64,000 bases of DNA, from positions 1 through 64,000 of the IMG/VR virus record IMGVR_UViG_3300009705_003007; one strand, 5' to 3'. The stretch is from a virus. The notes under the pieces were generated by a model. It saw only the letters and a program-made list of their open reading frames with translations, made no database searches and was not told the DNA's origin. Shown here one piece after another: positions 2,202 to 39,820 of this stretch. The number at the start of each line of letters is the position of its first letter. The first letter of the stretch is position 1. Both the position numbers and the translations under genes were made by a program.

Positions 2202-2202
2202 G

Positions 2203-4341: not shown

Positions 4342-4362
4342 TACTTAAGAATTTTACTGATG

Positions 4363-5533: not shown

Positions 5534-5544
5534 TAGGAGGAATA

Positions 5545-17837: not shown

Positions 17838-20206
17838 TGCCAGTATATCTAAGCGGAAAAGTAGCAGGCGAAAGAAACCATTTGATTCCAGCCCCATTCG
17901 TAAGTATTTCAAAAAATTACGATAAGGACGGAACTGGTGAAATACTTGGAGTTTCATATAGTATACAGCTTACCGGCACGTTGGTTGCCGATAGGGGTTC
18001 TCCTAAAGCTAACGGTGGGCTTATTCAGGGTGCTGGTGTTGATGTTTATTATGCCTTTACTGGGGATGATTTCCATCAGGCTTTATTAAACAAGGGCAAA
18101 GCCCTAATGAACATGTTTAGTAAACAATACGATGGTCAGGTTCTGACAATTGATTCTCCTATGTTTGGGAATCCTCAAGGTATATCTTGCTATATAACTG
18201 TAGAGAGTGTTGATTTGCCGGGACACAACCCCGGAGACCCGTACAAAATGCCGTATACAGTTAATCTTTCAACAAACGCCCTACTTGGCCCTAATAATGT
18301 TCCACTTGATGCTGACGACTATGAGCGGGTTGATAATTGGACGATCAAGTCTGCTACTGAGACATGGAATATAGAAGAGGTTGATAAACAAATCTATACT
18401 AGACATTCTATAGATGGTGGAGAAGCAGTAAATGATGCAGGAATTGTAAAAGGCCCGGGGAATAAAGGTGAATTAGTAAATAGCAGAAAACTATTTCAAA
18501 TAACAAGAAGCATGTCAGCTACCGGAAAAAACAAATTTCAAAGAACTGGAAAAAGTGAAGGAGTTAGCGCTAACGATAACTGGAGTACAGTCTATGCTCC
18601 AAATGGTAGAGCTTGGCAACAAGCCAGAGGGTATCTATATGACAAAATAGAATATGGTAACAAATACCTATTTGGAAAAGATGATAACGAATTTGTCGGC
18701 GCTGTGCCAGATGCTGGCTTGCCAGCACCGGGAGAGGTCGATGCTGATGATATTCATTTGTTCTCAATGAATATGCCCGTTCCAAATAATGAAGCAGACG
18801 CTAACAAGCAATACAAAGCTTTTAATTATAAAAGATTATCAAACGTAGATATAAATGCTGGTAGTTTTAATGTAACGGAAACTTGGTATTTAGCTCCATC
18901 TTCCGCCAAAGCTATGGAAACCATGGACTTTAGCATCAACGAAGAGTCAGAGGGGGATGGTAGTGTAACCATTAGTGTAAACGGCACCATAGAAGGATTG
19001 GGTGACAACGCTGATAATCTAGGTGTAGGCAACGCCAACAATGATGATAGGGATGTACGGAGAAATGCCGCTCGTGGAGATAGGGTATTTGATTACGAAG
19101 GAAACGGCCTTGGCGTGTTCGGCGTTAGTAATAGTAAGTGGCAAAATGCAGTTGAGCATTATGAAAAAGTAATGCCAACTTTGTTTAAGACCGTTACCGA
19201 AATGTTAAATGACCTTCCAGAATACACTACTTTTAAGGTCAATCCAGTTCCAGAGTCAAAAAGTGTCACTGAACAACCCGGAACTGGAACCATTACGTAT
19301 AACATATCCTTTACAACTAAGGATGGAGCTAATGGTAAGTATATACCTTATTGTCGAACTGAAGACTGGACTGTAAACGACACTTATCCCGGTATGGTTA
19401 TAGCTCAACACACTGTTCTAGGTAGAAGAGTTGGCCCCGTATTACAATCTATTAATACACAAACGCAATGGCAGAGAGATTTTTCTATCACCGCTAACTT
19501 TGATGTTAATAGAGCGCAGCTATGTGTAGATGCTTCTAATCAAATAAGAGATGTTGGGAATCAAGCAACATGTGAAGCAACGTTGGATAGTTTTGGACTG
19601 CTTATGAAATGGATACAAAATCCCAATTATGTAAACACCAGAACGTCTTTGACGATTGATGATTATTCAATAGATTTTATTAGCGCAAAACCGGGGGCTG
19701 CTAGAATAGGAACTAATTTGGGTGTTTGTACTCCTGAAACTGATCCAGTCACCGCTGCAACTATAACATCGCAAGCTGAATGTCAAGCATTGACTCCTGC
19801 GGGAAGTTGGAATCCAAATGGTAACCCAGTTGGAGCCGCCACGGGGACGGGACTTATACAAGCGCAAGCAATTAAGAAACTAATTGATTCGTTTGATCCA
19901 AAAACTTATCTCATAACTGGGGCAAACAACCCAAAAAGAGTACATAAAAGGTTTGTAAATCCACCGCAAGAAAGCTGGAATCCAAAAACTGGAGACTGGA
20001 GCTTTAGCGTAAGTTGGATTTACGAAATAAACGACCCTTACGCGTTTCCATCCGGCGATTATGTATTCGCTGATGTTGATGGAACTTATGGAACATGTAG
20101 TGATGCATCTATTGCAACCAAGGCGGAGTGTGTAGCAGCAGGTGGATCTTGGGAAAGCAAGCAAGATGACGGACAAGGCGAACCATATCCGGGGCAGGAA
20201 TTCTAA
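17837..20206 (+). CDS. Putative distal tail/baseplate protein with Cys-Trp module inserts
   Basis: Beta-rich (IPAPFVSISKNY, SATETWNIEE, WSFSVSWIYE); second gene after the tape measure; three C..C..W modules near the C-terminus. Confidence 0.5.
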   Translation: MPVYLSGKVAGERNHLIPAPFVSISKNYDKDGTGEILGVSYSIQLTGTLVADRGSPKANGGLIQGAGVDVYYAFTGDDFHQALLNKGKALMNMFSKQYDGQVLTIDSPMFGNPQGISCYITVESVDLPGHNPGDPYKMPYTVNLSTNALLGPNNVPLDADDYERVDNWTIKSATETWNIEEVDKQIYTRHSIDGGEAVNDAGIVKGPGNKGELVNSRKLFQITRSMSATGKNKFQRTGKSEGVSANDNWSTVYAPNGRAWQQARGYLYDKIEYGNKYLFGKDDNEFVGAVPDAGLPAPGEVDADDIHLFSMNMPVPNNEADANKQYKAFNYKRLSNVDINAGSFNVTETWYLAPSSAKAMETMDFSINEESEGDGSVTISVNGTIEGLGDNADNLGVGNANNDDRDVRRNAARGDRVFDYEGNGLGVFGVSNSKWQNAVEHYEKVMPTLFKTVTEMLNDLPEYTTFKVNPVPESKSVTEQPGTGTITYNISFTTKDGANGKYIPYCRTEDWTVNDTYPGMVIAQHTVLGRRVGPVLQSINTQTQWQRDFSITANFDVNRAQLCVDASNQIRDVGNQATCEATLDSFGLLMKWIQNPNYVNTRTSLTIDDYSIDFISAKPGAARIGTNLGVCTPETDPVTAATITSQAECQALTPAGSWNPNGNPVGAATGTGLIQAQAIKKLIDSFDPKTYLITGANNPKRVHKRFVNPPQESWNPKTGDWSFSVSWIYEINDPYAFPSGDYVFADVDGTYGTCSDASIATKAECVAAGGSWESKQDDGQGEPYPGQEF

Positions 20207-23200
20207 TGAGCAGTCATGACACAGCATTTAAATGTAGTAAAGACCCAAAAACGAATGACACTAAATCAAAGTGTACAGACGCTGGAGGTAATTGGGATTC
20301 GTATAACTCAACATCAAGCGATTATACCACATTAGAATTGGGTATTTTTCAGCAAAGCTTTTTAGGCCTGTCCATTATGGACTGGAGTTCAAATCTAGGG
20401 TTTAACGGAAATGGATCAAGTTTAACCGTAAACTTAGTTAGAGATGAATTTAATACACGGTCGTTCTTAACACCCTCTGGAACTAGAGATGCTATAACGG
20501 AAGGTTATCATAGCTGGAACCCAGACGCTTTCCCAAAAGACATGTTAACTAAATACGGCATTGACACCTCGCCTGATGCTGAGCCGGGGAATTCCGAAGA
20601 CGGAATGGGGCTTATATATTCGCAGTTTGGAGATATAGCTCACATGCCAGATCCGGGAGAGCCTGTTTTCTTCCATTATTATAACGGCGCGGATTTGAAT
20701 TCAACTTGTGTTCTTGAGAGAAATTGTAACAAAGCGTTTTCATTTCCGGGAATATTAACCAAATACGAAAAGAGGTTTTCTACATCTGGATTAACCTATT
20801 CCGTAAACATAGCAGACCCCCGAACCATCTTGGAAAACACCATAGTTATCTTAAATGGGTATGCGTCTAGGGTTTCACCCAGTGATTACTATACGGTAGC
20901 AGATAGTCTACGAACATACGAAGATGGATGGAATGGATATTACAACATATTAAATGTCTATGGGTATTACGAACATCACGGCTTTAATAAATCCGATAGA
21001 ACAGAAGCTGGAATGATTTGGCTTAGTCCAGACAAAATATTTAATACAGATTGGGAATCCGAAAAATGTATGAAAAATGGCGCAGAACACGTAGTCACTG
21101 GAGCTGACTGCGCTGCGGATGGTGGCACCATTGAGAGCAATGGAGGTCAGCATATGTTTGGTATACTTCCGGCCTTGATGGAAATGACAGGCGGCACAAT
21201 TACAAGCTACCAAAATGATCAAGAGCCTTTTGGTGGCCCAATGACCTATTCTGTAGATAGTAGACACTTAGCTGAAAAAGCGCCTTTTGCAGAGATATAC
21301 GGAGAGGATGGATATGGTAGTAACCCTTACCGTTCTACACACAGGTATCTATTAGATCTAGGAGACTTCCTTAGTCTAAGTCCTTATGATCCAGAATGGG
21401 GAGTAGTAGAAGACTTAAATGGAACAGAAGGGTTTATACCAACGGATTATCGAGTTGCCGGAGACTCAATGTCTCTCCTTCAATTAATACAACAGGTTTG
21501 TGAAGTTGCGGCTTCTGATTTTTACGTAACTCTAGAACCAATAACGAAAAAACTAATTGAAAGAAATTATGTTTTACCGCAAGACTACGAAGCAATAAAA
21601 AATTATTCGGGCGTTATTAGAGTTGTTGTAGTTGCTAGAAACTCAACCATAACCAAAGATGCTTTGAGCGACGCTGTAGACCTGTCTCAAAAATTACCAC
21701 CAGAAGGCCCATTTGTAGACGTGGAAAATAATCCCACACTTGTTAGTTCAACTCTTGGGTATGAGTTTACTGATCCAGTAGAAGGTAAGATTTTATTGGG
21801 TGGGCCAAGAACAAGGGTTGTGGGCGTCACACCTATTGGAGATAGAAGACTTAGAAAAGAGCTATTCTATAACGACACATCACGCAAGTATTTAGATATG
21901 TCATCAAGAGCCTACAAATGTATGGATGATAATGACGTAGAAGTGCCGGGGATGGTAGATGATACGGCGTGTTTGAACGAAGATGCAACAAACACATGGG
22001 AAGAAGTTGACACAACAGAACAAAGTCCAGCACCAGTAGAGGGAACAGACTCTATATTAACAGAGTATTTACCGAATGTAGAATTGGATGGAGTTACCCT
22101 TACTCGTCAAGACATACCAGAAGACACTTTTTTAGATGGAACGACTTTTGGTTGGAACCCTTATGGAAAAGTTGGAGTAACTGACAAAGACCTTTTTCCA
22201 GATTTTGCACAAAACCTTCCTCCTGTTAGTAACGATAATTACATTCCTTGGTATTGGCCTCAAGACTATTCTGGCGACAAAAACGAAGAAGCAGACCCTT
22301 TCCAGTTTAATAGAGTTAATTCTTTGGAGCAATCAAATGCTGGGGATTGCGTTTTTTCTGGCAATACTCCAGAAAATTTTTATTGCAAAGCGGTGGATGA
22401 CGCTAACCAAGGCAGTCCAACAGAAGCGGAATGTGTAGCAGCTTCGTCAGATAACGTCTGGACAACAGCTCCCAGTAGCGAAGACGGTTGTGACGGAGCT
22501 GAAGGAGGCTGGACTGCTAAACAAGAATCGCTCAGTTCTGGTTATTTAGACATATTCCCATGCTGGGGATATATTGAATATGAACACACAGAAGGTGGCG
22601 CGTATAAGAATTTGCATGGAAGCTGTATAAAAACAGGAGAAGCTGGAGATGTTGGGGTTGAGGCAGCAGACAAGGAGGCTTGTGAAGCATTAGGTTTTGA
22701 TCATAAATGGGTTCCTGATCCTCCATCAGCCATTCAAGCAACCGATCCGCTTCTTGACATAGTAGATAATACTGTTCAGGGTAAACCAATTAAAGGTTTT
22801 ACTTGGGATGATGATCCCTACAGAGACTTTAATCCAGTAGAAGGTATTTTCAGTGGAATAGAATGGTGGAATCCGAGTATTGGAAACTGCGAAGACAAGT
22901 CTGGTGCTTTAGTGACAAAATGGGAGAATATGCCCAACATATGTGAATGTAATCCAGATAAGTCGGAGGCAGACTCAGACTGTGTGACAATAAGGGGTGG
23001 TGATAAAGGATTATATATATTCAGACCTCATTGCGTACCTTGGAGCGCCTGTCGTGGTAAAACAGGAGAGGATATATTAGACACCACCGGTGGTCTTGCT
23101 GGGTCAGGAAACAGTGTAGCTTCAACGTCTTATGGGTGTGAGTTTGGATGTTTTGATCTTAAAGTGGACAGCAACGGTGATCCATTGGATCCAGAAGAAC

Positions 23201-26200
23201 CAGCATCTTCTAATTCTAGATTAGTAGCCTATTATACAAAAGAGTTTACAGGAACAGGATCCACGCCTCGTACTTATAAAAAAGGAGAGAGCGCTAACAA
23301 AGATCATGATAAGTGGGCGTCAAACCTAAAAAACGGAACTGTTCAACTAGTGGCAAGCGCAGACGACTGTGTGAAAAGTGGAACATTCTTAGATCCTCCA
23401 GTAAACAGGGGTTCTTTTAGAACTTCTTCGAGTGGCGGAATCGCGGAGTCTGCTACGTGTGACATTAATGCTGCGGATAACCCCAGTCAAACGAAATGTG
23501 AACAATCACAATGTGAAGGAGATAGAGGTAAAACAAACGCTGAATGTACCGCAGCAGGCAAAACTTGGAAAAAGGGAAAATGGAAAGAAGGAGATGAAAA
23601 TGATTATGAGAGTGGTGGCGGTCTTTATTCACAGGAATGTACAGCTCTTAGTTTTAGAGAAGACTGGATGCATGGTTGTTATTCTACGACAGAGATTACG
23701 GGAGATATCCCGTATCCTGCTAACAGTCTAACTGATGCAGTATCACCCAAAGACTGTAGAATCAAATACCCTACAGCAAAATGGAGAAACATAAAAGAAA
23801 ACGAATACCCACCTCAAGGGCTTACAGACCCATTCACGGGTTTAGTATTAGAAAAAGAAGATATTCCAGTGCCGGGATATGTAAAGACAAGACAAAGACT
23901 AAAAGGTGAATGTCACATGTTCTCAGAAACCGAGAACGAGGAGACTGGCTCAATAGACTCGGAAGACGAAGGCTTACCAGAGAATCCAACCAATGACCCA
24001 AGAGAATGTATGGCACAAAGTACCGCAGCCACTGAGGATAACCTCGAAGCAAATGGCAAAATGGTCTATGGGCCTATAGACCTTAATACTGGAATAGGTC
24101 TACCTCTAAAATGTAGAACCTCAACCATTCCTATAGATTTAGGACAAGTTGATTATTATGGTGGCCCCAAGCCAGAACATAATGATCCCGGTGGTCAATT
24201 CCAAGATTTTCATTACGCGACAGTAACAGAATTGAGACATGCCGCAACTAGTAAAGAATCTTGGCTGATCTTTATGAAAGAACTTCAGCCATATTTACCC
24301 TGTCATATGTATCATCAAGACCCACAGCAGTCAAACGCTTGGGGTGATCATTGTCCAGCCAAAGATAATATTGTTATGAAAGGTGGTATGAGCGGATCTT
24401 ATGTAGACGCAGCAAATGCTTTAACTGGGTTTGAATCAAGAGGTGTTTCTGTACCTGAAACTAATCCTTCTCCCGCGAAAGCAAAAACGGTAACGGGTGA
24501 ACCATGTGGAGATGAAGCCCAAAGCGCCCTGATGACAAACTACGAAAAAACAAGCATGATGATAGATCTCGCTTTTAAAAAGGTTGCACATGTAGCCACG
24601 CAGTTCTACGGAAGGAAGTATTTGGTTCCGCTTCCTTATAATCCACCATCAACCATAACGTGTACAAACCCAAGCCATAAAGACAAAGAAGCGTGTGAAA
24701 ATCTAGGATTTGATTGGGGCGCACATGGCTTACAAAGCGAATGGTTCCACAAAATGGGCGTTGGGAGATGTGCAAACGGAACAAGTCCCGATAAATATCA
24801 TTGCCAAATAGTTTCAGGGGATATATGGATTGAACCCATTCAAGAAATTAACAGATGGGAAATTGCAACTTCCGCATGGCCCGGAGGAGATATAGAATTT
24901 AACTTTGGTAGCGCAGAAGGAAAAGCTATTAATACTGGCTATCCACAAAATATGAACTTTTGGACTGATGACGGGAATTTAAAATCCTTTGTTATATTCC
25001 CAGAAAAAGAATGGCAAAGATTCTCTGGAAATTCTGTGCCTGTAAGTTTTGCCTCTTTTGATGCAGAAACTTTTTACAAAACTCCATTTAACGCTGGCCC
25101 TCATGATAATTGGGGTGGCAAGGTGTATGTTCCTACGCAAGTAGACCCAAAAACACACTGGTTAACAGATAGACCTGACTGGGAGGTTCATCATGAACTT
25201 CAGTATAAAAAATATTTAGCTGGTAGCCCAATGGAGCTTCCTAAAGGTGGTGAAACCGCCGCCCAGCTGAAAAGTTTAGCAACGTTAGCCGTAGTTGGAT
25301 GCGAACCAACAGAGGAGATTTGTTCTAAGACTAAACCAGATGGTACTGCCTGTACAGACCAATCGTCATGCGAAGATGACACTAATGGGTGTGGTGGTAG
25401 TTGGCACCTTCCCACAGACACATCAAGAATATTAAAAGAAAGACCAGTTATAACAAAGGGAACAACTGGAGTATTTCCTCAAGAAAACATTACTGATTAC
25501 GCTGCATATAAACCATACGCAATGGTAACACTTCCGGCAACCGCTATTTATTCACACACGGATGAGTCTAAAAAATTACACGACTCTGTAGGTGGAGAGA
25601 AGAATCACATGTGTGTGCCTTTATTAAAAGCTAAAAATTCAAATAGCTTATTACAGGCATGGTTAATGGGTTGGGATCCTTTAAGTATAGCAAGACAAAA
25701 TGTTGTAGCTTGGGGTGCTAGAATAATGGCTAATAGTAGTGTTGGGCCTGACATGAAGAAGGGGTCTTTTGCGGGAGCCGCCTATAAACCTTGGCATGCA
25801 GCAGTTCCTCAACAAAGCAGACATTATAGATGGGGAGCTTGGGCCGCAGGTTGGGATTTTGGAAAACCCGACTTCCAAATAGATGAAGCATTACACCCAG
25901 CCGCTTTTGGAGGGGAAAAAGGAATGAATAAAGCTGCTATGGCGAGAATAAAATCTACAATTGGTAAAGCTCAAAATAGAACTCAAGAAACCGGTAGTAT
26001 TCAATTAACTGGAATACCAGCATACGCTTTTGGTACACAGTTAGTATACGACAACGCTGCTGGCGAAACAGTAAAAGGGCCATTTATTACAGATGTTAGT
26101 GTCCAGATAGGATCCGGAGGTTTAACAACAACCTACAACTTTACTACAAACAGAAAATTTGGAGATTTAACAAAAACATACGAAGATAGAATCAGAAAGA

Positions 26201-26286: not shown

Positions 26287-26296
26287 GTAAACAATA

Positions 26297-31100: not shown

Positions 31101-34100
31101 TGCATGGGGTGAAGTTTACCCAACCATGAAAGCGGGAGGTCATTGTGCGGATATAGCTCAAAAAGTATGGGATTATGTTGAGACTCATGATGGTTTCTTG
31201 AGACGTGGCGATTGTGGCTATGGAAACGGAGCCTTGTGGGTGGGGTGGGTTGAAGACGATGGCGTGGACAACGACTTTATGTGTCCAAAGTGTTTAACAA
31301 TCAACGATGAAGGACAATGCAATAGTGCAACTACATGCATGTTGCCAGATGGAACATCTGAACAGGGCGACTGCGCAAGTGGTCAAGGTCAATGTATGGA
31401 CATTGGAGGAGATGCCGTAGAGGGAATAACTGAAGAAGGAGATTGTAATGGAGAAGGACAAAATTGGAGAGACGGAGTAACTGAAGATTGTTGCGAATGG
31501 TTCAAATTTTGTTCGTTCGACATATGCACCAATTTCGATGACGTTCAAGAGAGTCAGGGCTTAGTCGATTGTGTATGGAGAAAAGCAGACACAAAAGAAG
31601 AGTGTGAGAGGAAGATGAGCAACACGGGCGCTGGCGGTATTTGGCAAGACGGATGTGTTCCAACTGAAGCAAGATTACTACTGGATGAATGCTCTCCTGT
31701 TCACGATATACCAGAAGAACTTATAAACATTGTTTTGGGAGAAAAGGTAGGTGAATGTACTTGTTTTAATGAAGCAGGTGACGACCTTAGCGCGAACCTA
31801 CCTGAAAATGAATGTCAAGAATTGGTAAATTCTGGGGTTTGTGATGGAAGTATTCCTCCTGCATTTAACCCAGATATGGTTGGAGGTCAAGGAAGCACTT
31901 ATCCAGTAAGAGAAAACAACGTAGTTAAACTAAGGGTTGATGGGCCTTTAACCACAGAATTGACCGACCTGAGCGAAATAGAAGACGGTTTTCTAAAGTC
32001 TAAATGTTGGCTTAATGACGAAGTGTTTACGGTTAGTTTTGGTGAAATAGACAAGGCGCTTTGTCTTGCTATGAATAATAATCCACTTACACCGGGAGTA
32101 TTTAGATGGGGGCCAGACTATTACACAACTGAGTTTGGGTTAAAACGTCGTAGTCCCTTATCTGGAGGAGAGGGAGTAGGCAATGCCATGACTTACTGGC
32201 ATCACACTGGGCTTTTCCCCAAAGGTGAGATGGCTAGTTATGTTAACGATCACTGCATGGGAACTATGCAGCATAGAAGAATCCAGTACGCCAGCAACGA
32301 AAGACCAATCAAAATAACTTCCAGAAACCACCTATTAAAAGACGGTGATCTTGTTTCTACTTGGGATGTCCAAGGCAATTTTGGTGCTAACGTCATGACT
32401 AATCGTGATTGGCAAGAAACCCAATGGGAAGACAAGATATATAGCCCATGTGTTGGAGAGACTTGCGACGAAGTAATGTGGCCAAATAGCGTTTGTGCCG
32501 AGTCCACAATATGCTTAGACGAACAGGGTAATGAAATAAAGGGAGCAGGTAGAGAATCTTGTACAGGAGGAGAATGTGAAGCAACAAGAAAGGATGGTTC
32601 CAAATGTAATAGTCAAAATGCTTGTGAAGCAGAAGCGGAAGAATGTATCCCTCTGCAATCAGATGGCACTTGTAAAGAAGGTTTTGTAAAAGATAAAGAT
32701 TATAAGTTTGATAACGCAACCCAAAGCCAACCCACATGTGATGAGAAGAAATTTTCATGCTGTTATAATAAAGAAGACGGTGCTGGGATGTGTTTAAACA
32801 CCCTGTGGGAAAACCCAGACAGCCTGATGGGATGTGGTTCAAAGTGGGACGGAAAACAAGGAAACACCTTTAAAACATATTGCGATACCGATAAGTATTA
32901 CGCTTGTAACGGAGCGCCTATATTGGGAGAAGATCCTCCTCCAATGGATTCTTTTGTAGCCAAGAACGTGACACTTGACACTTTTGATTTATTTACATGT
33001 GACAAACACCCGGTCGATGGAAGAATAAAAAACAAAACAAATTTAGATACTGAAGAATGTGAAGACGAAAGTAAGCAAGTATGTGTAACAAATGCTGGCA
33101 TGCCCTATGAGACGATTGTTGCGGAGCCTGAATGGTCTGTTAAACTTTCGCCCTTCGAAGATGAGAAATATTTTGGACTAGTGGGCCACGAAGCTTTCGA
33201 AAAGCAAGAATGGTGCGCTGCTGGAGATCAGCTAAGACCAGAACACACTAGTAATGCTGCGTGTACCCATGCAGGTTTTACTTGGACTAATAATTATTCG
33301 CTTGAAACAGGTTCTTGTGACATAGACTCAAATAACAACATAAAATACAACGACTGTATAGAATTAGCCTGCTACATAGAGGACAGGAGAACAAGAAAGT
33401 CAGAAACAGAATGTGTTGGGTCTGACGTTAACGGAGTGGCTTTACTCTGGAAAAAGGGAAACTGGTCAGGTGGGGTTGATGCAGACGTTAGATGTATTAC
33501 TTTTGGGAAATGCCTAATTGTAGACAATGCTATTGGCGTGTCTGAAGGCATGATGACAAGAGATGAATGCACCCTTCTTGGAAAAACCTTCAGAACTCTT
33601 CATACGAACAAACCTTACACAGATGGAACACAACAATATCTGCATCAATGCTATGATGGATCTGCTAATGCAGATAATCATGAAGACATTATACGAAAGG
33701 CTATGGACGTTGATGAATTAGAAAAAGTATGTCTAGCAAAACATAGTAAATGTATAGATTATGATGGCAATGACTTAGGCATAGGTAATGAAAGCAATTG
33801 CTTATCAATGGGTGGAACGTGGCAAACTGGTAAAGTCCAAACCCAATATAACGAGTGTGTTAAAACAATAGAGGGTGAGTTGGGGGTTTTAGACTACTCG
33901 TTCGGAGATCCTTTTAAAAACTGTTTTATTGAAAACGCATGGAAGTCCGAAATGATGCTGGACGACACGAGTTCCATGGTCTCAAGCTTTGGAGTACCCA
34001 GCGTGGGCGTTTGGAAGACATGTCCATTCACTGGTCAATGGGACTATTGGGGAAATGCCAACGATGATGTTGGTGTAGAAGCTGGTTATGTAAGCCATCT

Positions 34101-37100
34101 TAATGCTGATGAACTGGATTCCAAATTCAAACTTGGATGGGGAGGGCCGGGATATAAATGGGAAGAAAGAGCAAACGATTACTATGTACAAATTGAACAA
34201 AAAGGTATATGTCCAGTATGCTGTGATCACTTTATGCCTAGAAGTCTTATTGCAACAATTTCAGACCAACCAACTGAAATATTGAATCATATACAATGTA
34301 GAATGGATCCTTGTGATGCACCAACAGCGAATGATTCGTTTGGTATTAACGACGTGGGATCCGCTAATCATGATGGCTATTGTTGTGCAGACGCGCATCA
34401 TCCTTGTGTTTTAGGTGATGATGTTCCGAATTGTGAAAGTGAATTCATTCCTCTTCCTAACGGTAGCTTAAAGCCTGTAACTTTTGGTCAGTGTTATAAA
34501 GACGGCGAATTGCTTGTTTCTTTCAGACGAGATGATTGCGTTAGGAAGAGAGGTGGCACGTTTGTGCCGGTAACAGCGCCGGAGATGTGTGATCCATTCA
34601 TAAGAACACGTCTCAGTAATGCTGGAACTACGAATTGTAGGAAGTGTTCAGAGGTGTATAGCTCCAGACATAAAGTTAAAACTTATGCGGAAACCGGAAA
34701 TGTAAAATCGAGAGAAAGAGGGCTCTTGAGTTATTCAGGAAGTAATTGCTGCGAAGATGGAACGTTATGTGAAAGAACTACAAACGCACAAGACAAAAAC
34801 CTTCTGGACGAAGATTATCCTTATCCAACATGTGAACAAGTAAGATTTTTATGCCCGCCTTGTACGGTAGAGGGACAAACATGTAACAAGGGACAAGTAT
34901 CAGCATTATGCAAGGTGACGCTTGATCCTTATGGAAATGAAGTTGGGATTGATTGGCAGTTTGAGCCTTGTATTTGTTTCCCAAACAATGTTTCGTATGA
35001 GTATGAGCCTGAATTTGTAGTCACGGGTGACGCAGGAAACTCGGCAGCCGGAAGTTGTGATTTCAATGGGGTTAAGAATAGCGCTGGGGATATGGGGGTA
35101 GATAATGCTGGAGGATGTTATGACGTTAACGGAAACATAGTAGTAGGAAAAGAGAGAAAAAACGGCGCCTTAGAATCAGACTGTGCTAGTAACGAAAAAT
35201 GGAAAAGCGGATCTGGTGGTTGTATGCCAATGCATATAGAAGCATACGCTGATGAATCTTGCTACGATCTAGGAAATTCTATTGAGTCATACGATTCGAC
35301 ATGTCCCGGATTCGACGCGATTGACGTACCAATGGAATACGATGGGGTTGTATGGAGATCAGAATGGGAGTTGATGAATGAAGTTGGCTTAAAGACATGT
35401 GAATTTGGCATGCATAGATTCCACTGGCCTGTAAATTGTAGAGCAACTGGCCCATCAGGAAGTGATTATACTGCTCCATCAGAAATTGTTGCTGTCGGTG
35501 GTGACTGTGACGGATGCGACATGCCTCAAATGGGCTTGCATGGAATATTGGTTGACGGAAGAAAAAGCTGGCTAACACATAGAAATGCAAAACTACCAAA
35601 CGCAACTAATGACGGGCATTTTATTAGATTAGTAATGGGCTGTGGAAACTCTATACCATCAATAGACGCTTATAGAAGTGGTGATATAGTTGATGGCGGC
35701 TTTGGGCCAATATTAGGAGCCACTTATAGAGATAACGGTATTAAAATATGGTCAGAAATAACCAACTGTACCTTTACAGACGCTATGGGTTCTGATGGTC
35801 TAAGAATAGACAGGGTTGATACTGGTGTTTCTGGTAGTCCTCCTATCTTTCCCCTCAAACCATGCATATCAAAAAATCAACTAGTTAAGGCGATGCACGG
35901 AAAACTTCCTACACCGGGAGATCCAACTGAAACAGAAAGAGTCTATACGTTTGCTGGAAGATGTATAAGGAAAAAAGACTGTGGGCCAAAGGGGCCATGT
36001 CACGGTACAGACTGCTGTACTTACAAGGGAAGAGATAAAAGGTACTTCAGCGCCCCGCTTTGGAGTGGAGGTATTGCTTGTTCGACAGGCGGAGACCTTG
36101 CACATAGATGTCAGGCAACTGGTTTCGATCCCCTTCCTTCAAAACCGGCAGAACAATTTACTGTTCATTATATAAAAGATGTTAATCCTGTAACGGGTGA
36201 AGGAACGCTCGTTGTTCCAGCTTACGCCCCAACATTTGGTGGTAGAAGGTGTCATTATGAAAACGGAACTCCCGTTGGTATTGGTGTAGCCGAATTACAA
36301 GATGCTGAACTAGACACTTTTGGCGATTTTTCAAGAAATAACAAATCTAGAAATCCATATCTACCAGCCGGTGGCACAGTCATAACGGGGTCTAAAACGT
36401 CATCTACAAAATCTTCTGTTACTACTTATAAGCGACACGACGGTATTCCAAGCGGAGATGCCATACCTGACGAACATGGTGATAAAGGTCGTGGTAATGG
36501 TCAGTTTATGGAAATAAAGGTCGCAAATGTTGCACCGCTTATAACCAAAAACCCAAGGAAGAACAGACATTTAAGAATCTATGATAGGTCGAGAGGAAGC
36601 GCAGCATCTGGTTTTCATAACGCCACCACTCTTTCTGGCATGAATATGCTACAAAGGTATGACTTACCGCAGCCTTACGGTTTAAATCCTTGGCCTGTCG
36701 ATCACCAAACGCACTCAACCTCCTATAGTCCATGGCCTAAAGGTGGCCCACATTCACCTAATGCTTTATTGGGGGGTATACCTACGGAGAGTCTAAGAAA
36801 AGATCCTGCTCTTTCTCTTAATCAACCCGGAAGAGTTGGGCCTATGCCAACAATGGATAATCTAAATAGAATGTTTAGGTATAATGAAGTAAACATGGGA
36901 GATGGAGCGACCACGCCCATTCCAGAAATATTTCCTTTTGAGCCTGTTCAGATTGATGGGTTTGATAATGTCTATTCAGACTCATTAGGAGCTTGTACTA
37001 ATTCTTATTACAAAACCAAGGGTGCTTGTAAAACAGCAGACCATCTATGGATTCCTCAGTTCATATATACAAAAGTTACAACAAAATACGATCATGATTT

Positions 37101-39183
37101 AGCTGATGCTGAAAAGCTTGTAATTAGTGGAAGCGTAGCCTATCCAGCAACCTGTAAAGGTGTAAGATTGGGCTATTGTTCAGGAAAGAAAGGTGCGTCT
37201 ATAAATGATTGTATAAGGGGCGAATGTGTTGATACCCATATGATAAATTCTCCATATGTTCATATAGATGGAGACATAACTAAAGGTATTATAGATAATA
37301 AGACAGATTGTGATGCCGCCAGCGCACAAAAACAAAATGATGCTTTTTTGAATGGCTTTGATGCGCCGTCTTTGGCATTTAAGACTAACGGTCAATGGGT
37401 TCAAGTGTTTAAAGAGACGACGAGTTCAGACGGTCGTGAACCTGAAATAGGAGATGCGGATAAGCACATTTGTGAAGTAGTGTTTAATGGTGAATGGGTA
37501 GTTGGGACGACAAACAACGAGAAAGACAAAAAGGGCTTTTATAAGGACGAAAACAATGATTTTCCTATTAAGTTAACCCTTGGGCATGAAGGCTTTGTTG
37601 AAGGCTGTCCTGTTGGTTGTAGGTTAAACGGATTCTATTTATCAGATCCATGCACACCGCCAAGTGACAGCAGTCCAGAAGGACAATGTTTCGAATGCGT
37701 GGAAACTGTTGTTATTGTAGATGAACAAGAAATAAGAGAGATGAAATGTCCTCTTGGCCCAGTTGATGGAAATTACGTCGCTAGAAAACGAGGCTGTCAA
37801 CACGCTGAATATGAAAACGAAAAAGACTGTGAAGAAAAGGGTTGGGCTTGGTTCGGTAAAATTACAGCTAAAAACGAATTTGCTATTCATCAAGAAATGG
37901 AATTAACAATTCATGATGCAAGTCAATTAAGATCAAACCTAGATGCCTATAAACCACTACCAGTAAATATTGACTCCGGTCTTTATGGTACGGACTGGGA
38001 ATATGATTTATCGAATACTCCTAAAAGAATAAGCACAGACGCCGCTGTAGGCACGTCTGAACCATTGAGTAGTTTAAGTCACGATCAATGCAAAGCAACA
38101 AGAGGGGCAGAGTGGACGATAACCAACAACACCACAACACCTCCGGAAGGTCGATGTGTAGATCTTTCAAGACTGGACGCTGAATTCCCAGCCTTGTTTG
38201 GTGACGATCCCGAAAGTGCAGAAACAGAAGAACAACAAGCAATTTATGATCTTTGTAACAAAAGTGACAATTGTCAATTCATAAGGAAATATAAACAATG
38301 TTTAGGTAATCACTGGTCTGATATAGGGACGTGTTGGCAAGTTAAAACAGACGATAGCGAAGGACGAATCATTACAGATGAAGAAACCACGCATAGAGAG
38401 TGTGATGCTTTAAATGGTGTGTTTGTTGGAAAACCAATATCATCCATAGAAACTGTCGATGAATGTGCTGAGTATTCTTTACAAAGCTCAAGGTGTAGCA
38501 TAAGCGGTGATAATGAAATCTACTCAAGCGAAGGAAGTTGCCTATTCGCGGGTGGTGATTGGATAGAAGCAAGAGACGCAAGTGGAGAAGCAGTTTATGA
38601 ATTTGAATGTATAGACGCTTCTATTCCGGGATCATACTCCACGCCTAAAGAATGTACTGTAATTGGACTTGGAAAAGTTTCCTATAAAGGTACACCAAGC
38701 AGTATTTCTCTGGACGAACGCAAGATGAACGTCGTCACAATGATGAAAAAGTTATCAAATCTATCTTCTCCAGAAGCTATTGCTATGGGTCATGATGTTG
38801 GCATTGGTCTTTCTCCAAGAAACCATAAAGGTGTTATATACGCAGCACAGGTAGACGTTTCTGTAGCAGAGAATAAAGGTTATGACAAGTACGCAGATCC
38901 AAACTGGAGAGCAGTATGGAGTAGACACGGTGGGGCATTTGATATTCTAATAGGGTATCCCCCACCGGAAAATAATTGTAGACAAGGAAATAGTGACAAA
39001 CCTACAAACATGGACTTCTACCTACAATTTGATCAGATATGCTGTAACGACAAAGGGGCGTTAAACTTCCATAAATGTGAAGACAAGTGCTGGCATCATT
39101 ACTATGGGCCAGTCTTAAACGATATGGAATTCCAACATGGAATACCCGGAGATTCAATACTTCACGTAAATGTTCACGAATAA
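28111..39183 (+). CDS. Giant (3690 aa) cysteine-rich virion protein, probable tail fibre/receptor-binding protein
   Basis: 11-kb uninterrupted ORF at the end of the tail module. Dozens of C..C..W modules, and two interrupted beta-barrel domains of the 'ANPxVxTxxxHGLxxGDxV' (E1-FCCH-like) phage tail type. Confidence 0.7.
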   Translation: MAIGDPWDTSYNPRYNYPLKNQHTGKPAWMPDASDEVPQDNPLALKDRRKGRFCTEGCGCIDTYCSNLAGARCTLPPELAITIMRTPDGRYQARNGIENGEGETYHLKYSNGSWRGSRCCSHNADGSLNYACDPCKVSTLPNGKPSECHHANNKYKELDSNKQVGDNFTPRGKYHYDAAMHGEAWPRRGVDTWLVPDGYNETLPTDGTEMLKSSERVGRYSGCFNIDGSLQEVDAAVTDDASCKDLHGPKAYWNEFIPSWTNNDVKDRQSVEDLIGTELQQTQFSKNSTSARLNIKAVEKRIRIDKENYLVGYSIQNGSDEDVAENIADPRIAYSTVDSREGGCIEDGAAPIKKRPWCRNAGTGTRIRQQCTDTQHKNKIDCEDAVIPGTSETTTSEIWLYDDKSECQGSGFCYPPEETGGTGVADLSVEALKPHCVTKAYCEGTSDNCSQSVVDPDTGIGRTCDTKDDCEAPVYGNTGCGGSWLNNPVLNKADCIDLGEKWVGEQEYTQGYCIDEIGQRVPLDVPAGMTEQECRDSDKETWVDPSKSKKGCEEVFPEDAPNGTEWSLGSENSCESHNKGKDALCRDSDGNVIDGSCSLSSDENKTQEDCVELSCYETSSGAKVSKSEGECLGPIYSWKKGVWTPFSKKSVCEAADGTWYSNVWMPNDWVDWEYEKRSCCGGTILDEAHPFHTPQISGGARNTRKNTVCFTPYSEVILHTDAISGFIGDSRGEGCTSIGNQFDRQLFFPDIESYWTVIIRPCNFWGSCTEEGKTRPDPSELTGQPDNYFDTTCGEEVVLYLPVDQMLNCSNFNLTLQSEEQLRSGWKESEPMWDERMGSFEYGNPATNIAAKVGMSSAVTGAGNISGGFPGTPFGTQYPAWCMNPDANFDGIADGQAFQGSASGRNFCDQYVYYSSGAEKNRLANAKGAEVLHGFNIQPQPFKATEEKQNRAKSFEQALNDKAYWQKCVGHIMGDYGGGGHWFWNYGVDYFMYYDFVAWGEVYPTMKAGGHCADIAQKVWDYVETHDGFLRRGDCGYGNGALWVGWVEDDGVDNDFMCPKCLTINDEGQCNSATTCMLPDGTSEQGDCASGQGQCMDIGGDAVEGITEEGDCNGEGQNWRDGVTEDCCEWFKFCSFDICTNFDDVQESQGLVDCVWRKADTKEECERKMSNTGAGGIWQDGCVPTEARLLLDECSPVHDIPEELINIVLGEKVGECTCFNEAGDDLSANLPENECQELVNSGVCDGSIPPAFNPDMVGGQGSTYPVRENNVVKLRVDGPLTTELTDLSEIEDGFLKSKCWLNDEVFTVSFGEIDKALCLAMNNNPLTPGVFRWGPDYYTTEFGLKRRSPLSGGEGVGNAMTYWHHTGLFPKGEMASYVNDHCMGTMQHRRIQYASNERPIKITSRNHLLKDGDLVSTWDVQGNFGANVMTNRDWQETQWEDKIYSPCVGETCDEVMWPNSVCAESTICLDEQGNEIKGAGRESCTGGECEATRKDGSKCNSQNACEAEAEECIPLQSDGTCKEGFVKDKDYKFDNATQSQPTCDEKKFSCCYNKEDGAGMCLNTLWENPDSLMGCGSKWDGKQGNTFKTYCDTDKYYACNGAPILGEDPPPMDSFVAKNVTLDTFDLFTCDKHPVDGRIKNKTNLDTEECEDESKQVCVTNAGMPYETIVAEPEWSVKLSPFEDEKYFGLVGHEAFEKQEWCAAGDQLRPEHTSNAACTHAGFTWTNNYSLETGSCDIDSNNNIKYNDCIELACYIEDRRTRKSETECVGSDVNGVALLWKKGNWSGGVDADVRCITFGKCLIVDNAIGVSEGMMTRDECTLLGKTFRTLHTNKPYTDGTQQYLHQCYDGSANADNHEDIIRKAMDVDELEKVCLAKHSKCIDYDGNDLGIGNESNCLSMGGTWQTGKVQTQYNECVKTIEGELGVLDYSFGDPFKNCFIENAWKSEMMLDDTSSMVSSFGVPSVGVWKTCPFTGQWDYWGNANDDVGVEAGYVSHLNADELDSKFKLGWGGPGYKWEERANDYYVQIEQKGICPVCCDHFMPRSLIATISDQPTEILNHIQCRMDPCDAPTANDSFGINDVGSANHDGYCCADAHHPCVLGDDVPNCESEFIPLPNGSLKPVTFGQCYKDGELLVSFRRDDCVRKRGGTFVPVTAPEMCDPFIRTRLSNAGTTNCRKCSEVYSSRHKVKTYAETGNVKSRERGLLSYSGSNCCEDGTLCERTTNAQDKNLLDEDYPYPTCEQVRFLCPPCTVEGQTCNKGQVSALCKVTLDPYGNEVGIDWQFEPCICFPNNVSYEYEPEFVVTGDAGNSAAGSCDFNGVKNSAGDMGVDNAGGCYDVNGNIVVGKERKNGALESDCASNEKWKSGSGGCMPMHIEAYADESCYDLGNSIESYDSTCPGFDAIDVPMEYDGVVWRSEWELMNEVGLKTCEFGMHRFHWPVNCRATGPSGSDYTAPSEIVAVGGDCDGCDMPQMGLHGILVDGRKSWLTHRNAKLPNATNDGHFIRLVMGCGNSIPSIDAYRSGDIVDGGFGPILGATYRDNGIKIWSEITNCTFTDAMGSDGLRIDRVDTGVSGSPPIFPLKPCISKNQLVKAMHGKLPTPGDPTETERVYTFAGRCIRKKDCGPKGPCHGTDCCTYKGRDKRYFSAPLWSGGIACSTGGDLAHRCQATGFDPLPSKPAEQFTVHYIKDVNPVTGEGTLVVPAYAPTFGGRRCHYENGTPVGIGVAELQDAELDTFGDFSRNNKSRNPYLPAGGTVITGSKTSSTKSSVTTYKRHDGIPSGDAIPDEHGDKGRGNGQFMEIKVANVAPLITKNPRKNRHLRIYDRSRGSAASGFHNATTLSGMNMLQRYDLPQPYGLNPWPVDHQTHSTSYSPWPKGGPHSPNALLGGIPTESLRKDPALSLNQPGRVGPMPTMDNLNRMFRYNEVNMGDGATTPIPEIFPFEPVQIDGFDNVYSDSLGACTNSYYKTKGACKTADHLWIPQFIYTKVTTKYDHDLADAEKLVISGSVAYPATCKGVRLGYCSGKKGASINDCIRGECVDTHMINSPYVHIDGDITKGIIDNKTDCDAASAQKQNDAFLNGFDAPSLAFKTNGQWVQVFKETTSSDGREPEIGDADKHICEVVFNGEWVVGTTNNEKDKKGFYKDENNDFPIKLTLGHEGFVEGCPVGCRLNGFYLSDPCTPPSDSSPEGQCFECVETVVIVDEQEIREMKCPLGPVDGNYVARKRGCQHAEYENEKDCEEKGWAWFGKITAKNEFAIHQEMELTIHDASQLRSNLDAYKPLPVNIDSGLYGTDWEYDLSNTPKRISTDAAVGTSEPLSSLSHDQCKATRGAEWTITNNTTTPPEGRCVDLSRLDAEFPALFGDDPESAETEEQQAIYDLCNKSDNCQFIRKYKQCLGNHWSDIGTCWQVKTDDSEGRIITDEETTHRECDALNGVFVGKPISSIETVDECAEYSLQSSRCSISGDNEIYSSEGSCLFAGGDWIEARDASGEAVYEFECIDASIPGSYSTPKECTVIGLGKVSYKGTPSSISLDERKMNVVTMMKKLSNLSSPEAIAMGHDVGIGLSPRNHKGVIYAAQVDVSVAENKGYDKYADPNWRAVWSRHGGAFDILIGYPPPENNCRQGNSDKPTNMDFYLQFDQICCNDKGALNFHKCEDKCWHHYYGPVLNDMEFQHGIPGDSILHVNVHE

Positions 39184-39193
39184 GAGGAATATA

Positions 39194-39820
39194 ATGAAGG
39201 GTTTTTTTAATAACGAAGAAGAAGACGTTAATGCTTTAGAGAAGAAGCATATAAAGAGGAATAAGCCTCAAGTCTTCGATAATATAATAAGTGGTGGTAA
39301 AAAGGTTAAGGATTATATCGAACCAGAGAGACAAAGAGAAACGCCCTGTCAATGTCAAATGACAGAAGATACAGGAAGTATATTTTGCGATAGACATCAA
39401 TGCATAAAAAGCAAGTCCTTGCATCATCTATGTAAAAACAGAATGGCTTATTTTGAAATGTGGGAAGAAGGCAAAGGGCCAATGCAAGACCCGTTAAGTC
39501 AAACGATGGTGTCAAGAGGTCACAGAGGAACAGAAAATAAGGAAGAACAGAAAACTAAACAACAAATAGGATTTTTTAAAGTGGAAGAAGATAATGGATT
39601 CTTTATGGGCGATTTAGACATACCGTCTGAATCAAGAGGTTTAGGAGACACTTTAGCAAAAATAACCAAGGTTACAGGAATTAAGAAGGCTGTAGACACA
39701 GTGTTTAGCGCCATAAAGAAGGATTGCGGATGCAAGGAAAGACAAAGTAAGTTAAACAAAGTCTTTCCCTACAAAAGGGATGAAGCCAAGCAACATAAAA
39801 CAAAAGGCTTTTTCCAATAA
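39194..39820 (+). CDS. Cys/His-cluster protein with C-terminal GLGD...CGC domain (track start 39170)
   Basis: GAGGA SD before ATG 39194; CQC...CDRHQC...HHLC cluster; C-terminal RGLGDTLAKITKVTGIKK...DCGCKERQSKLNKVFPY. Confidence 0.65.
   Translation: MKGFFNNEEEDVNALEKKHIKRNKPQVFDNIISGGKKVKDYIEPERQRETPCQCQMTEDTGSIFCDRHQCIKSKSLHHLCKNRMAYFEMWEEGKGPMQDPLSQTMVSRGHRGTENKEEQKTKQQIGFFKVEEDNGFFMGDLDIPSESRGLGDTLAKITKVTGIKKAVDTVFSAIKKDCGCKERQSKLNKVFPYKRDEAKQHKTKGFFQ

Follow-up and report, generated by a model that had tools for sequence, protein, structure and literature searches.

Three giant tail-tip proteins, encoded downstream of the tape measure in an uncultured marine phage, carry the same building block of roughly 20 residues, with two Cys and one Trp, and are dissimilar apart from it. 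Is this unit a genuine module, how has it come to occupy so many positions in three dissimilar proteins, and what might it do at a tail tip? The window analysed here is a 64,000-nt stretch of the 79-kb phage genome. The carriers, taken from the ORF list, are designated by their lengths:

17837..20206, + strand: p789, 789 aa, 8 Cys, carrier protein
20206..26286, + strand: p2026, 2026 aa, 48 Cys, carrier protein
28111..39183, + strand: p3690, 3690 aa, 184 Cys (5%), the main carrier

A Cys-Cys-Trp module recurs in three tail-tip proteins

Units in the window proteins have the spacing Cys-x10-14-Cys-x6-Trp, from which long-loop and nested variants deviate; the wider consensus of the module is GTCSDPxYTTxxxCxAAGGTWT. 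The Cys1-x(10-14)-Cys2-x6-Trp spacing has 13 strict matches across the three proteins, against about 1 expected. Matches to the strict pattern C[^C]{8,18}C[^C]{6}W number 1, 4 and 8 in p789, p2026 and p3690, respectively, compared with 0.01, 0.18 and 0.83 in shuffled sequences (1000 shuffles each). The shorter motif CxxxGxxW occurs 1, 3 and 6 times (0.02, 0.10 and 0.39 in shuffles), and the helix half-motif [TSDN][KEQ]xxC 3, 9 and 26 times (0.3, 2.0 and 7.7 in shuffles).

An HMM trained on 21 units of p789 homologs from other genomes (score at least 3) gave 1, 3 and 5 matches in p789, p2026 and p3690, 0.02 matches per shuffled protein, and zero matches among the genome's other 279 ORFs. A library HMM trained on 247 units from unrelated library proteins (score at least 4 bits) gave 1, 3 and 4 matches, about none in shuffles, and zero in the other ORFs of the 79-kb genome. 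Its matches scored 27.4 bits in p789 (aa 752-774), 18.1 (the pair at aa 1484-1543), 11.4 and 8.1 bits in p2026, and 13.6, 13.4, 10.1 and 7.4 bits in p3690, and a 12-position consensus is common to the window units and the unrelated proteins. The module is real: strict patterns and HMMs stand far above shuffles for the three genes, and no other ORF matches. The recurrence noticed in the first-pass annotation of this DNA, whose quoted peptides were all found in the genes named for them, thus stands.

The number of copies depends on what is counted. The three proteins hold 8-13 canonical copies; with degenerate, long-loop and nested forms counted, hand curation gives about 26 sites, or about 29 units including nested ones, so the initial estimate of "dozens" holds for the wider count and fails for the canonical one. 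The loose pattern scarcely exceeds background in p3690, with its 5% Cys (16 matches vs 7.1 in shuffles; 13 vs 5.6 when nested units are peeled out). Because neither the loose pattern nor recursive peeling discriminates in p3690, we relied on strict patterns and HMMs. The majority of the 184 Cys of p3690 fall outside assignable units, indicating that other Cys-rich architectures are also present.

The carriers are otherwise as dissimilar as they had first appeared: the best pairwise BLASTP segments among p789, p2026 and p3690 are the units themselves (E 0.03-0.2). The copies lie scattered along the proteins and their DNA has diverged, again as described initially, with the longest DNA matches spanning 25-34 nt at 70-84% identity; one of 25 nt (84%) joins p789 unit 3 to the p2026 unit at aa 725-754. 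In an alignment of nested double units (A2), comprising one p2026 and two p3690 copies, 4 Cys and 2 Trp are invariant. A multi-Cys variant thought to be shared by two of the proteins does occur in both p2026 (aa 1697-1735) and p3690 (aa 447-486), each time with CGGSW, but the BLASTP alignment between them is weak (E 0.13).

Units of p789

The p789 gene lies in the order TMP-p879-p789, and 87 homologs were found, in marine metagenomes. The N-terminal ~160 aa resemble a tail-tube/Dit-like fold in VIA-align comparisons, at middling Z values: 9.4 to the monocin tip 9j1k_K (2.5 Å over 116 residues), 9.2 to the 80alpha baseplate 6v8i_AC, 8.8 to the phage p2 Dit 2wzp_P and 7.4 to the SPP1 Dit 2x8k. 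Foldseek with the whole p789 model returned weak tube/Hcp-type rows only (E 6e-3 at best). Three units follow:

19517..19618, + strand: unit 1, aa 561-594, long-loop and ancestral, C563...C579...W592 followed by IxNPN
19721..19816, + strand: unit 2, aa 629-660, long first loop, matched by the loose pattern
20090..20158, + strand: unit 3, aa 752-774, canonical, a recent insert, 27.4 bits with the library HMM

At the unit 1 site (563/579) both Cys are present in 53 homologs, neither in 16 and a single one in 0. The Trp accompanies the Cys pair in 49 of these 53 homologs and is found in 0 of the 16 that lack the pair. Relatives have one or two canonical units nested after Cys2+3 at this site, and P0011, P0016 and P0021 have canonical units at the site of unit 2. 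Unit 3 sits as a clean 20-aa insertion with conserved sequence on either side and is confined to the six closest relatives (at least 76% identity).

Units of p2026

p2026 has no family match in Pfam, PHROGs or NCBIfam, and 25 homologs were found. Its assigned units are:

20227..20301, + strand: N-terminal unit, aa 8-32, strict pattern and HMM matches
21061..21129, + strand: Trp-less unit, aa 286-308, ending GGT-I
21913..22716, + strand: three long-loop units, aa 570-600, 725-754 and 805-837, loose pattern
23452..23589, + strand: nested double unit, aa 1083-1128, an outer C-x12-C-x3, an inner canonical unit, then KKGKW
24655..24834, + strand: two neighbouring units, aa 1484-1506 and 1520-1543, fixed in the family
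25294..25410, + strand: five-Cys variant, aa 1697-1735, ending CGGSW

The neighbouring pair retains its Cys pairs and Trp in 24/24 and 20/20 aligned homologs, respectively, and both units are fixed in almost every homolog, whereas the others are lineage-specific and some are nested. The unit at aa 8-32 occurs only in the 7 closest homologs; the five-Cys variant, which aligns weakly to p3690 aa 442-484, occurs only in the closest relatives. The Cys pair at aa 286-308 is all-or-none, with both Cys in 4 homologs and neither in 5, and in the long-loop units Cys pairs and Trp co-occur across homologs. The nested unit at aa 1083-1128 is missing, as a clean gap of 44 aa, from homologs whose identity is 46% or below. 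P0095, 69% identical to p2026, has two extra units. In this homolog a canonical unit is nested in the first loop of the Trp-less one.

Units of p3690

Assigned units of p3690 are:

29215..29742, + strand: dense array called by HMM and pattern matches, comprising unit 369-392, CGGSW variant 447-486, unit 478-504 and long-loop unit 511-544
29893..30096, + strand: nested double unit, aa 595-645 (in A2), then a closing half-unit, aa 646-662, with an HMM match at aa 649-661
31387..31473, + strand: unit, aa 1093-1121, strict pattern
33208..33471, + strand: unit, aa 1700-1727, and second nested double unit, aa 1734-1787, 13.4 bits with the library HMM, in A2
33745..33828, + strand: unit, aa 1879-1906, strict pattern and a weak HMM match
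35110..35208, + strand: long-loop unit, aa 2334-2366, loose pattern only
36988..37056, + strand: unit, aa 2960-2982, strict pattern, 10.1 bits with the library HMM
37789..37857, + strand: unit, aa 3227-3249, strict pattern and seed HMM
38488..38568, + strand: unit, aa 3460-3486, strict pattern and seed HMM

The best p2026-p3690 BLASTP segment lies within the units at 33208..33471. A homolog on an IMG/VR contig is 66% identical to p3690 (3810 aa, 197 Cys). The unit at aa 1093-1121 is absent from this homolog and thus window-specific; the homolog has an extra canonical-type unit beside aa 2334-2366, at window position 2338. Cys units make up 9 of the 12 indels of at least 8 aa between the two proteins, one of the nine being a 78-aa nest of three levels.

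Gain, loss and nesting among relatives

Comparison with homologs shows that the module is gained and lost at loop sites, and that its Cys and Trp are coupled. It was expected that homologs would share a core and differ in their inserts; relatives of all three proteins do retain the core, with units gained or lost at different loop sites. Across the p789 family (87 homologs) the unit appears at no fewer than 8 alignment sites, with 0-3 copies per protein and zero in short, distant relatives, and a single site provides a graded series: none, one unit, then one or two more nested after Cys2+3. The insertion sites fall in coil or low-pLDDT segments of the p789 AlphaFold model. Cys1, Cys2 and Trp are present or absent together across homologs, with two singletons among about 200 p2026 cells; Cys118 and Cys506 of p789, which are not part of the module, vary independently.

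Residues between the two Cys of a unit diverge more quickly than the surrounding host protein. In the p3690 homolog pair 174 of 183 aligned Cys are kept, and identity at non-Cys/Trp positions is 41% inside units vs 67% outside. DNA identity is low, only about 45-65% over the outer head for window copies of the nested unit and that of the relative. A direct-repeat scan for a DNA donor returned nothing longer than 34 nt, and DNA comparison within the window and the relative revealed neither recent copy-paste nor a DGR-like template/variable repeat pair.

Predicted fold of the module

The AlphaFold model of p789, from an 80-sequence alignment, has a mean pLDDT of 78.7, with units at 74-86. DSSP assigns a predicted strand(Cys1)-helix(Cys2)-strand(Trp) arrangement to 3/3 p789 units: E561-564 / H576-581 / E591-594 in unit 1, E630-632 / H646-650 / E657-659 in unit 2 and E753-754 / H762-767 / E772-773 in unit 3. 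The predicted flanking strands are equal in length within each unit (4/4, 3/3 and 2/2), which fits termini that lie close together. For the nested p3690 unit at aa 595-645, modelled at moderate confidence from three sequences (mean pLDDT 70), the prediction is E-H-[E-H-E]-E, so that strand-helix-strand appears at both levels of the nest as well as in p789. In a wide VIA-align search the 51-aa nested-unit model returned one row, an unrelated chain at Z 2.0; a model of this length is too small for an informative search of this kind.

A probable stapled, insertable module in tail-tip loops

We consider it fairly probable that the unit is an autonomous module of ~20-25 residues, repeatedly inserted into tail-tip loops and likely disulfide-pinned, giving a rigid but variable layer. 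In the predicted fold, a short strand carrying Cys1 would lead into a one-and-a-half-turn helix, N-capped by T/S/D/N and carrying Cys2, and then into a second strand, also short, carrying the Trp. Pairing of the strands would set the module's ends side by side, a Cys1-Cys2 disulfide would most likely fasten the helix to the strands, and a tiny hydrophobic core would come from the Trp together with Tyr/His at position 8. Being self-contained with adjacent ends, such a module could be tolerated in almost any loop, including either of the two loops of another copy, and this tolerance would account for repeated addition, duplication, nesting and deletion in p789, p2026 and, above all, p3690. The tail tip would thereby gain a rigid, probably oxidation-hardened outer layer in which the Cys/Trp scaffold is conserved and the inter-Cys residues change fast. 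Gain and loss at loop sites, the all-or-none behaviour of Cys and Trp and the AlphaFold strand-helix-strand arrangement together favour the portable stapled knob that had been suggested at the outset; surface exposure and a stabilising or diversifying role are what we infer for the units.

The units might instead be chiefly binding knobs, with Tyr/His, Trp and variable loops facing host glycans or proteins under host-range selection. The location of the carriers, tail-tip proteins downstream of the tape measure, agrees with such a role, as do inter-Cys residues that outpace the surrounding protein in evolution and the quick shifts of unit copy number and position among relatives; aromatic residues, moreover, are typical of carbohydrate-binding sites. 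We nonetheless regard binding as an unlikely principal role. The Trp is strictly coupled to the Cys pair, and in a 20-residue unit it is likelier to be core than ligand contact. The unit also occurs in pilin-like proteins, multihaem cytochromes, subtilases, ZnuA-like proteins and T4 gp8 inside the baseplate, and a spread over unrelated proteins of such different function points to a generic structural role.

A bolder version of the insertable module makes it an insertion cassette that spreads by itself: a recombination or repair pathway would copy the 60-75-nt unit into DNA encoding loops, with a preference for loop 1 of an existing unit or the position immediately following Cys2+3, and phages would thereby build and remodel nested, disulfide-hardened arrays on tail-tip proteins to diversify host range. 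We hold this to be improbable; if true, it would add a third principle to diversity-generating retroelements and the exchange of tail-fibre cassettes.

The knob had been described as "disulfide- or metal-stapled". Judging from sequence, a Cys1-Cys2 disulfide is likely, with indirect support from the all-or-none covariation of the pair, and a metal staple for the two-Cys unit is unlikely. The Cys are invariant and paired, and nested or adjacent units bring four of them close in sequence, as would suit a metal such as zinc shared by neighbouring or nested units in place of a disulfide. Virions assemble in a reducing cytoplasm, which counts against a disulfide and for a metal. Isolated units such as p789 aa 752-774 and that of T4 gp8, however, have two Cys and no conserved His/Asp/Glu ligand set, a Cys spacing of 10-14 residues that spans a helix does not resemble that of zinc knuckles or ribbons, and many carriers appear secreted or extracellular, so that metal binding seems very unlikely. 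With respect to oxidation, no Erv/ALR-type sulfhydryl oxidase motif was found in any ORF of the genome. The genome encodes only two thioredoxins (WCGPC and WCPHC), both signal-less, which may simply serve ribonucleotide reductase. T4, an E. coli phage that carries the unit in gp8, is not known to require oxidation.

Equally hard to sustain is the notion that the units are immobile, ancient fixed parts of domains lost in some lineages, with apparent insertions being deletions elsewhere. It fits p2026 aa 1484-1543 and p789 aa 561-594, which are fixed family-wide, and the failure to find a donor-recipient pair at the DNA level. But the units at p789 aa 752-774 and at p2026 aa 8-32 and aa 1083-1128, like the extra ones of P0095, are restricted to the closest relatives and stand where all deeper branches lack the residues, one site holds 0, 1, 2 or 3 units, and the unit is found in dozens of unrelated protein families; loss alone would require an implausibly unit-rich ancestor. 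Last, a by-product of composition in Cys-rich proteins, with no common origin or fold, could yield the roughly twofold excess of the loose pattern in p3690, but is effectively refuted by the matches of the foreign-trained 21-unit and 247-unit HMMs. Strict patterns and three independent HMMs match far more often than in shuffles and nowhere in the other ORFs, a 12-position consensus extends to unrelated proteins, and structure predictions agree across units.

The stapled, insertable module would be a very small, self-nesting fold, widespread in phage virion and secreted bacterial proteins, and it accounts for much of the surplus Cys in three giant genes that otherwise resist annotation. Once catalogued, it would allow part of the large, "dark" and Cys-rich tail proteins in marine phages to be annotated, and it would give a handle on how the tail tips of such phages are hardened and varied in oxidising sea water. 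For protein engineering it offers a natural 20-residue staple that tolerates loop insertion and has hypervariable positions, and for evolution it poses the question of how a unit too short for ordinary domain shuffling has spread so widely.

Comparison with known systems

Residues 142-162 of the T4 baseplate protein gp8 (PDB 1N7Z; 9F4A) carry the module as C-x10-C-x3-G-G-x-W-T, CSIASLTDKDECLKLGGKWTP; the corresponding region is residues ~140-162 in 1N7Z, 5IV5 and the T4-like 9F4A, and positions ~138-170 in Pfam PF09215. A profile built from window units alone finds T4 gp8 in the PDB, as does a consensus-type library protein. In the reverse direction, Pfam Phage-Gp8 and PHROG 977 match p789 aa 745-782, with unit 3 aligned to Phage-Gp8 positions 138-170. 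p789 is not a gp8: the PF09215 match covers the unit alone (positions 138-170 of 337) and, at 17 bits, is below the gathering score of 25, and the PHROG 977 match is similarly restricted. Like the window proteins, gp8 is a phage baseplate or tail protein with the module, but it has a single unit in an unrelated 334-aa protein, compared with about 26 sites and about 29 units, some nested, in the window.

The first-pass annotation described the module in tail proteins; it is confined neither to tails nor to phages, and secreted bacterial proteins have it too. The window-only profile identified 90 multi-copy library proteins that carry the unit, among them type IV pilin-like proteins, multihaem cytochromes, subtilases and ZnuA-like proteins; the many unrelated, mostly extracellular domains in these carriers include RCC1, fn3, PKD and Phage_Tail_Tip. 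A prepilin N-terminal methylation motif (N_methyl) is present in 7 of 51 scanned carriers, and many have N-termini that, judged by eye, resemble signal peptides. This extracellular or secreted setting favours disulfides. The library carriers (247 units) have the same unit and consensus as the window, but in mostly tandem, near-consensus copies, whereas window copies are dispersed, diverged (Lys-rich, with long loops) and nested; the library carriers are often cellular, with signal-peptide-like or prepilin leaders, and the window carriers are virion proteins made in the cytoplasm. Sequence comparison thus places the module well beyond the window phage. Two of the 51 scanned carriers match Pfam Gp10_D3; the window-only profile did not recover T4 gp10 from the PDB.

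No dedicated Pfam, NCBIfam or PHROGs model matches the module, and literature searches returned no paper that describes the gp8 loop as a module or the module itself. A tblastn search of 50,697 phage records with p789, p2026 and the four-unit consensus protein P0118 gave no match, as short units are below the reach of BLAST and the collection holds no cultured relative. A library search of longer proteins with the nested double-unit alignment A2 yielded 159 candidates, none of which scored.

Zinc knuckles and zinc ribbons were rejected as identities for the module, since they need four Cys/His ligands in CxxC-type pairs and the module has two Cys; isolated units have these 10-14 residues apart and no conserved His. 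The use of disulfide networks to stabilise the tail and baseplate of environmental phages has precedents in cyanophage Pam3 (PMC9942802) and Agrobacterium phage Milano (PMC10811340). The Pam3 and Milano bonds are individual links within or between subunits and lie in ordinary domains; they form no repeated portable module (PMC9942802; PMC10811340).

EGF-like domains such as PF07974 (EGF_2; six Cys, about 35-40 aa) have no match in p789, p2026 or p3690 at E of 0.1 or less. EGF-like domains and knottins are likewise tiny, combine a conserved Cys scaffold with hypervariable loops and are reused in many proteins; their fold depends on disulfides, as that of the module probably does. They have six Cys, three disulfides and other topologies, however, whereas the module has one Cys pair and a Trp at half the size, and it inserts into loops and into itself where EGF-like domains and knottins are strung end to end.

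Tail genes that carry the unit

The virus record is a single record of 79,431 bp, and the window is its first 64 kb. Upstream of the tape measure, the stretch 462–6958 (+) holds seven genes presumed to encode head or tail structural proteins, none with a Pfam match. The tail genes that follow are:

7029–15188, +, tape-measure-like protein of 2719 aa, zero cysteine
15198–17837, +, p879, with a Laminin_G_3/ConA-like lectin-fold domain (aa 229–380, E 1.2e-10), flanked by the tape-measure gene and that of Dit-like p789
17837–20206, +, p789, 789-aa carrier of the Cys-Cys-Trp unit
20206–26286, +, p2026, 2026-aa unit carrier
26297–28111, +, p604, between p2026 and p3690
28111–39183, +, p3690, 3690-aa unit carrier

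Cys content, 0% in the tape measure, climbs through 1.0% in p789 and 2.4% in p2026 to 5.0% (184 Cys) in p3690. The tape-measure-like protein without any Cys is encoded only a few genes upstream of the one with 184; its 2719 residues would imply a very long tail. Cys units are absent from p879. Pfam, PHROGs and NCBIfam give no family for p789, p2026 or p3690, except for a sub-threshold Phage-Gp8/PHROG 977 match at p789 aa 745–782. No relatives of this phage were found among 50,697 phage records, and the lineage is very poorly charted.

In an AlphaFold model of p789 (80-sequence input alignment, mean pLDDT 78.7), the first ~160 residues adopt a tail-tube/Dit-type fold, matched by VIA-align to monocin tip 9j1k_K (Z 9.4, rmsd 2.5 Å, 116 residues), the 80alpha baseplate (Z 9.2) and phage p2 Dit (Z 8.8), all Z values in the middling range. 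This predicted fold, together with the gene order, supports the assignment of p789, p2026 and p3690 as tail-tip proteins.

The units form a coherent family

Every peptide quoted by the first-pass annotation was found in the three proteins. The strict pattern C[^C]{8,18}C[^C]{6}W occurs 1, 4 and 8 times in p789, p2026 and p3690, respectively (shuffle means 0.01, 0.18 and 0.83), CxxxGxxW occurs 1, 3 and 6 times (0.02, 0.10 and 0.39), and the helix half-motif [TSDN][KEQ]xxC occurs 3, 9 and 26 times (0.3, 2.0 and 7.7). An HMM built on eight window units matched only these three proteins among the 282 ORFs of the genome. HMMs trained on foreign units only, either 21 from p789 homologs in other genomes or 247 from unrelated library proteins, gave 1, 3 and 5 or 1, 3 and 4 matches, respectively, with zero matches in the genome's other ORFs and ~0.02 or fewer per shuffled protein. 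The strict patterns and all three HMMs agree, far above shuffles, that the units are a statistically coherent family.

The carriers are otherwise dissimilar, as proposed: they have no common core, and when paired by BLASTP they align best over the units (E 0.03–0.2). The copies have also diverged at the DNA level, with top matches of 25–34 nt at 70–84% identity, such as the TKAECVAA-coding stretch common to p789 and p2026 and TGGAAAAAGGG of the WKKG closure. The claim of dozens of copies stands only with variant forms included (~26 sites and ~29 units in a hand-curated list that counts long-loop, Trp-less, multi-Cys and nested forms), but canonical copies number only 8–13. In Cys-rich p3690 a loose pattern reaches only ~2x background, and the majority of Cys fall outside assignable units. 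A dense array occupies p3690 aa 369–662 (29215–30096, +), with the Trp-ending closures GTW, NVW, NDW and VDW accumulating at its end; it looks like nesting deeper than two levels, with an ambiguous parse.

Gain, loss and nesting among relatives

Homologs with the same core but different or absent inserts, expected if the unit is portable, were found for all three carriers. The p789 family comprises 87 homologs, every one from marine metagenomes, with 0–3 units each spread over at least eight different alignment sites; distant short relatives (~485 aa) have zero. The canonical unit at p789 aa 752–774 is limited to the six relatives at ≥76% identity, and its 20 residues form a clean insertion flanked by the conserved stretches WIYEINDPYAFP and QDDGxxxPYPGQ. 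Occupancy at the unit 1 position (C563...C579...W592-IxNPN) is graded: the position is empty in distant relatives, holds a single unit in most, and in the homologs P0020, P0022, P0032, P0037, P0039 and P0046 holds 1–2 extra canonical units nested directly after Cys2+3.

Among the 25 homologs of p2026, the adjacent unit pair at aa 1484–1543 is fixed in nearly all, and the N-terminal unit, the nested double unit (aa 1083–1128) and the multi-Cys variant are confined to the closest relatives. Homolog P0095 (69% identical) has two additional units, one nested within loop 1 of a Trp-less unit, and another clade has a unit where the window protein is empty, with a further unit nested in it in P0102.

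A homolog of p3690 from an IMG/VR contig is 66% identical (3810 aa, 197 Cys), and Cys units account for 9 of the 12 indels of ≥8 aa between the two, including a canonical-type unit and the window-specific unit aa 1093–1121. Another, 78 residues long, is nested three levels deep and belongs to the 'CDIN...W-x-x-G-x-W' type, of which the window has one copy in p2026 and two in p3690 (alignment A2 of nested double units). This nest lies at residues ~1148–1225 of the homolog (region L005, G001:C1:29000-41600, − strand), where the window protein is empty; its outer head is closer to the p2026 copy (11/19 residues) than to the p3690 copies. Nesting positions in the three families define two common entry points, loop 1 and three residues past Cys2.

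Architecture of the unit

The two Cys and the Trp behave as all-or-none across homologs. At p789 site 563/579, both Cys are present in 53 sequences, neither in 16 and one alone in 0, and the Trp accompanies 49 of the 53 pairs and none of the 16 non-pairs; the non-module residues Cys118 and Cys506 vary independently. The p2026 family has two singletons only among ~200 cells. In the p789 model each unit folds as strand(Cys1)-helix(Cys2)-strand(Trp) (pLDDT 74–86), its two outer strands matching in length (4/4, 3/3 and 2/2); the nested unit at p3690 aa 595–645, modelled separately, reads E-H-[E-H-E]-E (mean pLDDT 70, three sequences only). Insertion sites in the p789 family fall in coil or low-confidence model segments. 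Of 183 Cys aligned between p3690 and its homolog, 174 are kept, and identity at other residues is 41% within units versus 67% outside. Such a contrast marks a conserved scaffold whose loops evolve fast.

From the all-or-none Cys and Trp, the modelled strand-helix-strand, the coil insertion sites and the scaffold/loop identity contrast, we infer a micro-domain that is self-contained and has its termini side by side, in which a putative Cys1–Cys2 disulfide would act as staple and the Trp would form the core. Comparative and model evidence lends support to the proposed portable stapled knob in loops, whose role may be stabilisation, shielding or direct binding.

Redox setting and spread

Three further features may bear on the units:

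39170–39820, +, 216-aa gene overlapping the p3690 end, Cys/His-rich (CQCQ, CDRHQC, HHLC, CGC; four GFF motifs)
40607–41257, −, Methyltransf_24/CmcI-like methyltransferase, first gene of a long minus-strand block right after the tail genes
genome 77712–78291, −, two tandem thioredoxin-fold genes outside the window (L006:13715–14291), no signal peptides

The thioredoxins, near the far genome end, have one classical WCGPC and one DsbA-like WCPHC site, and their role may be to support the ribonucleotide reductase encoded nearby or to assist oxidative folding of Cys-rich virion proteins. No Erv-like sulfhydryl oxidase motif was found in the genome's ORFs. The 216-aa product has no Pfam or NCBIfam match, and, given where its gene lies, at the p3690 end, it might act on this Cys-rich tail protein as a chaperone or redox partner. 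The units are Ser/Thr-rich, which makes tail-protein glycosylation conceivable. A direct-repeat scan and comparison of copies in the window and a relative revealed neither a donor-recipient pair at the DNA level nor a repeat system for spread of the 60–75-nt unit.

Occurrence beyond this phage

A window-only profile searched against 1.84 billion representative proteins matched 90 at E ≤ 1e-3, multi-copy without exception and 80–6186 aa long, with the sharp consensus GTCSDPxYTTxxxCEAAGGTWTP. A Pfam scan of 51 of the 90 found the prepilin N-terminal methylation motif in 7; others carry Cytochrome_C7, Peptidase_S8, RCC1, EGF, fn3, PKD, TIG, Phage_Tail_Tip or Gp10_D3 domains. Proteins built almost wholly of units matched no Pfam or NCBIfam model, and no paper describing the module was found in the literature. 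The setting of many carriers looks extracellular, which favours a disulfide in the unit. Disulfide networks in the tails of cyanophage Pam3 (PMC9942802) and phage Milano (PMC10811340) are precedents for this putative bond.

Against the PDB, the window-only profile matched residues 142–162 of T4 baseplate protein gp8 (1N7Z, E 0.076) and T4-like wedge protein 9F4A, the latter being the sole match when a consensus-type carrier was the query. The presence of the unit in T4 gp8 explains the Phage-Gp8/PHROG 977 matches of p789. The module is real: a widespread mini-domain, as yet uncatalogued. It is not special to this phage: the solved structure of T4 gp8 includes one such unit, resembling those of the window. 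What stands out in these marine-phage tail proteins is the unusual multiplication, dispersal and nesting of the module.
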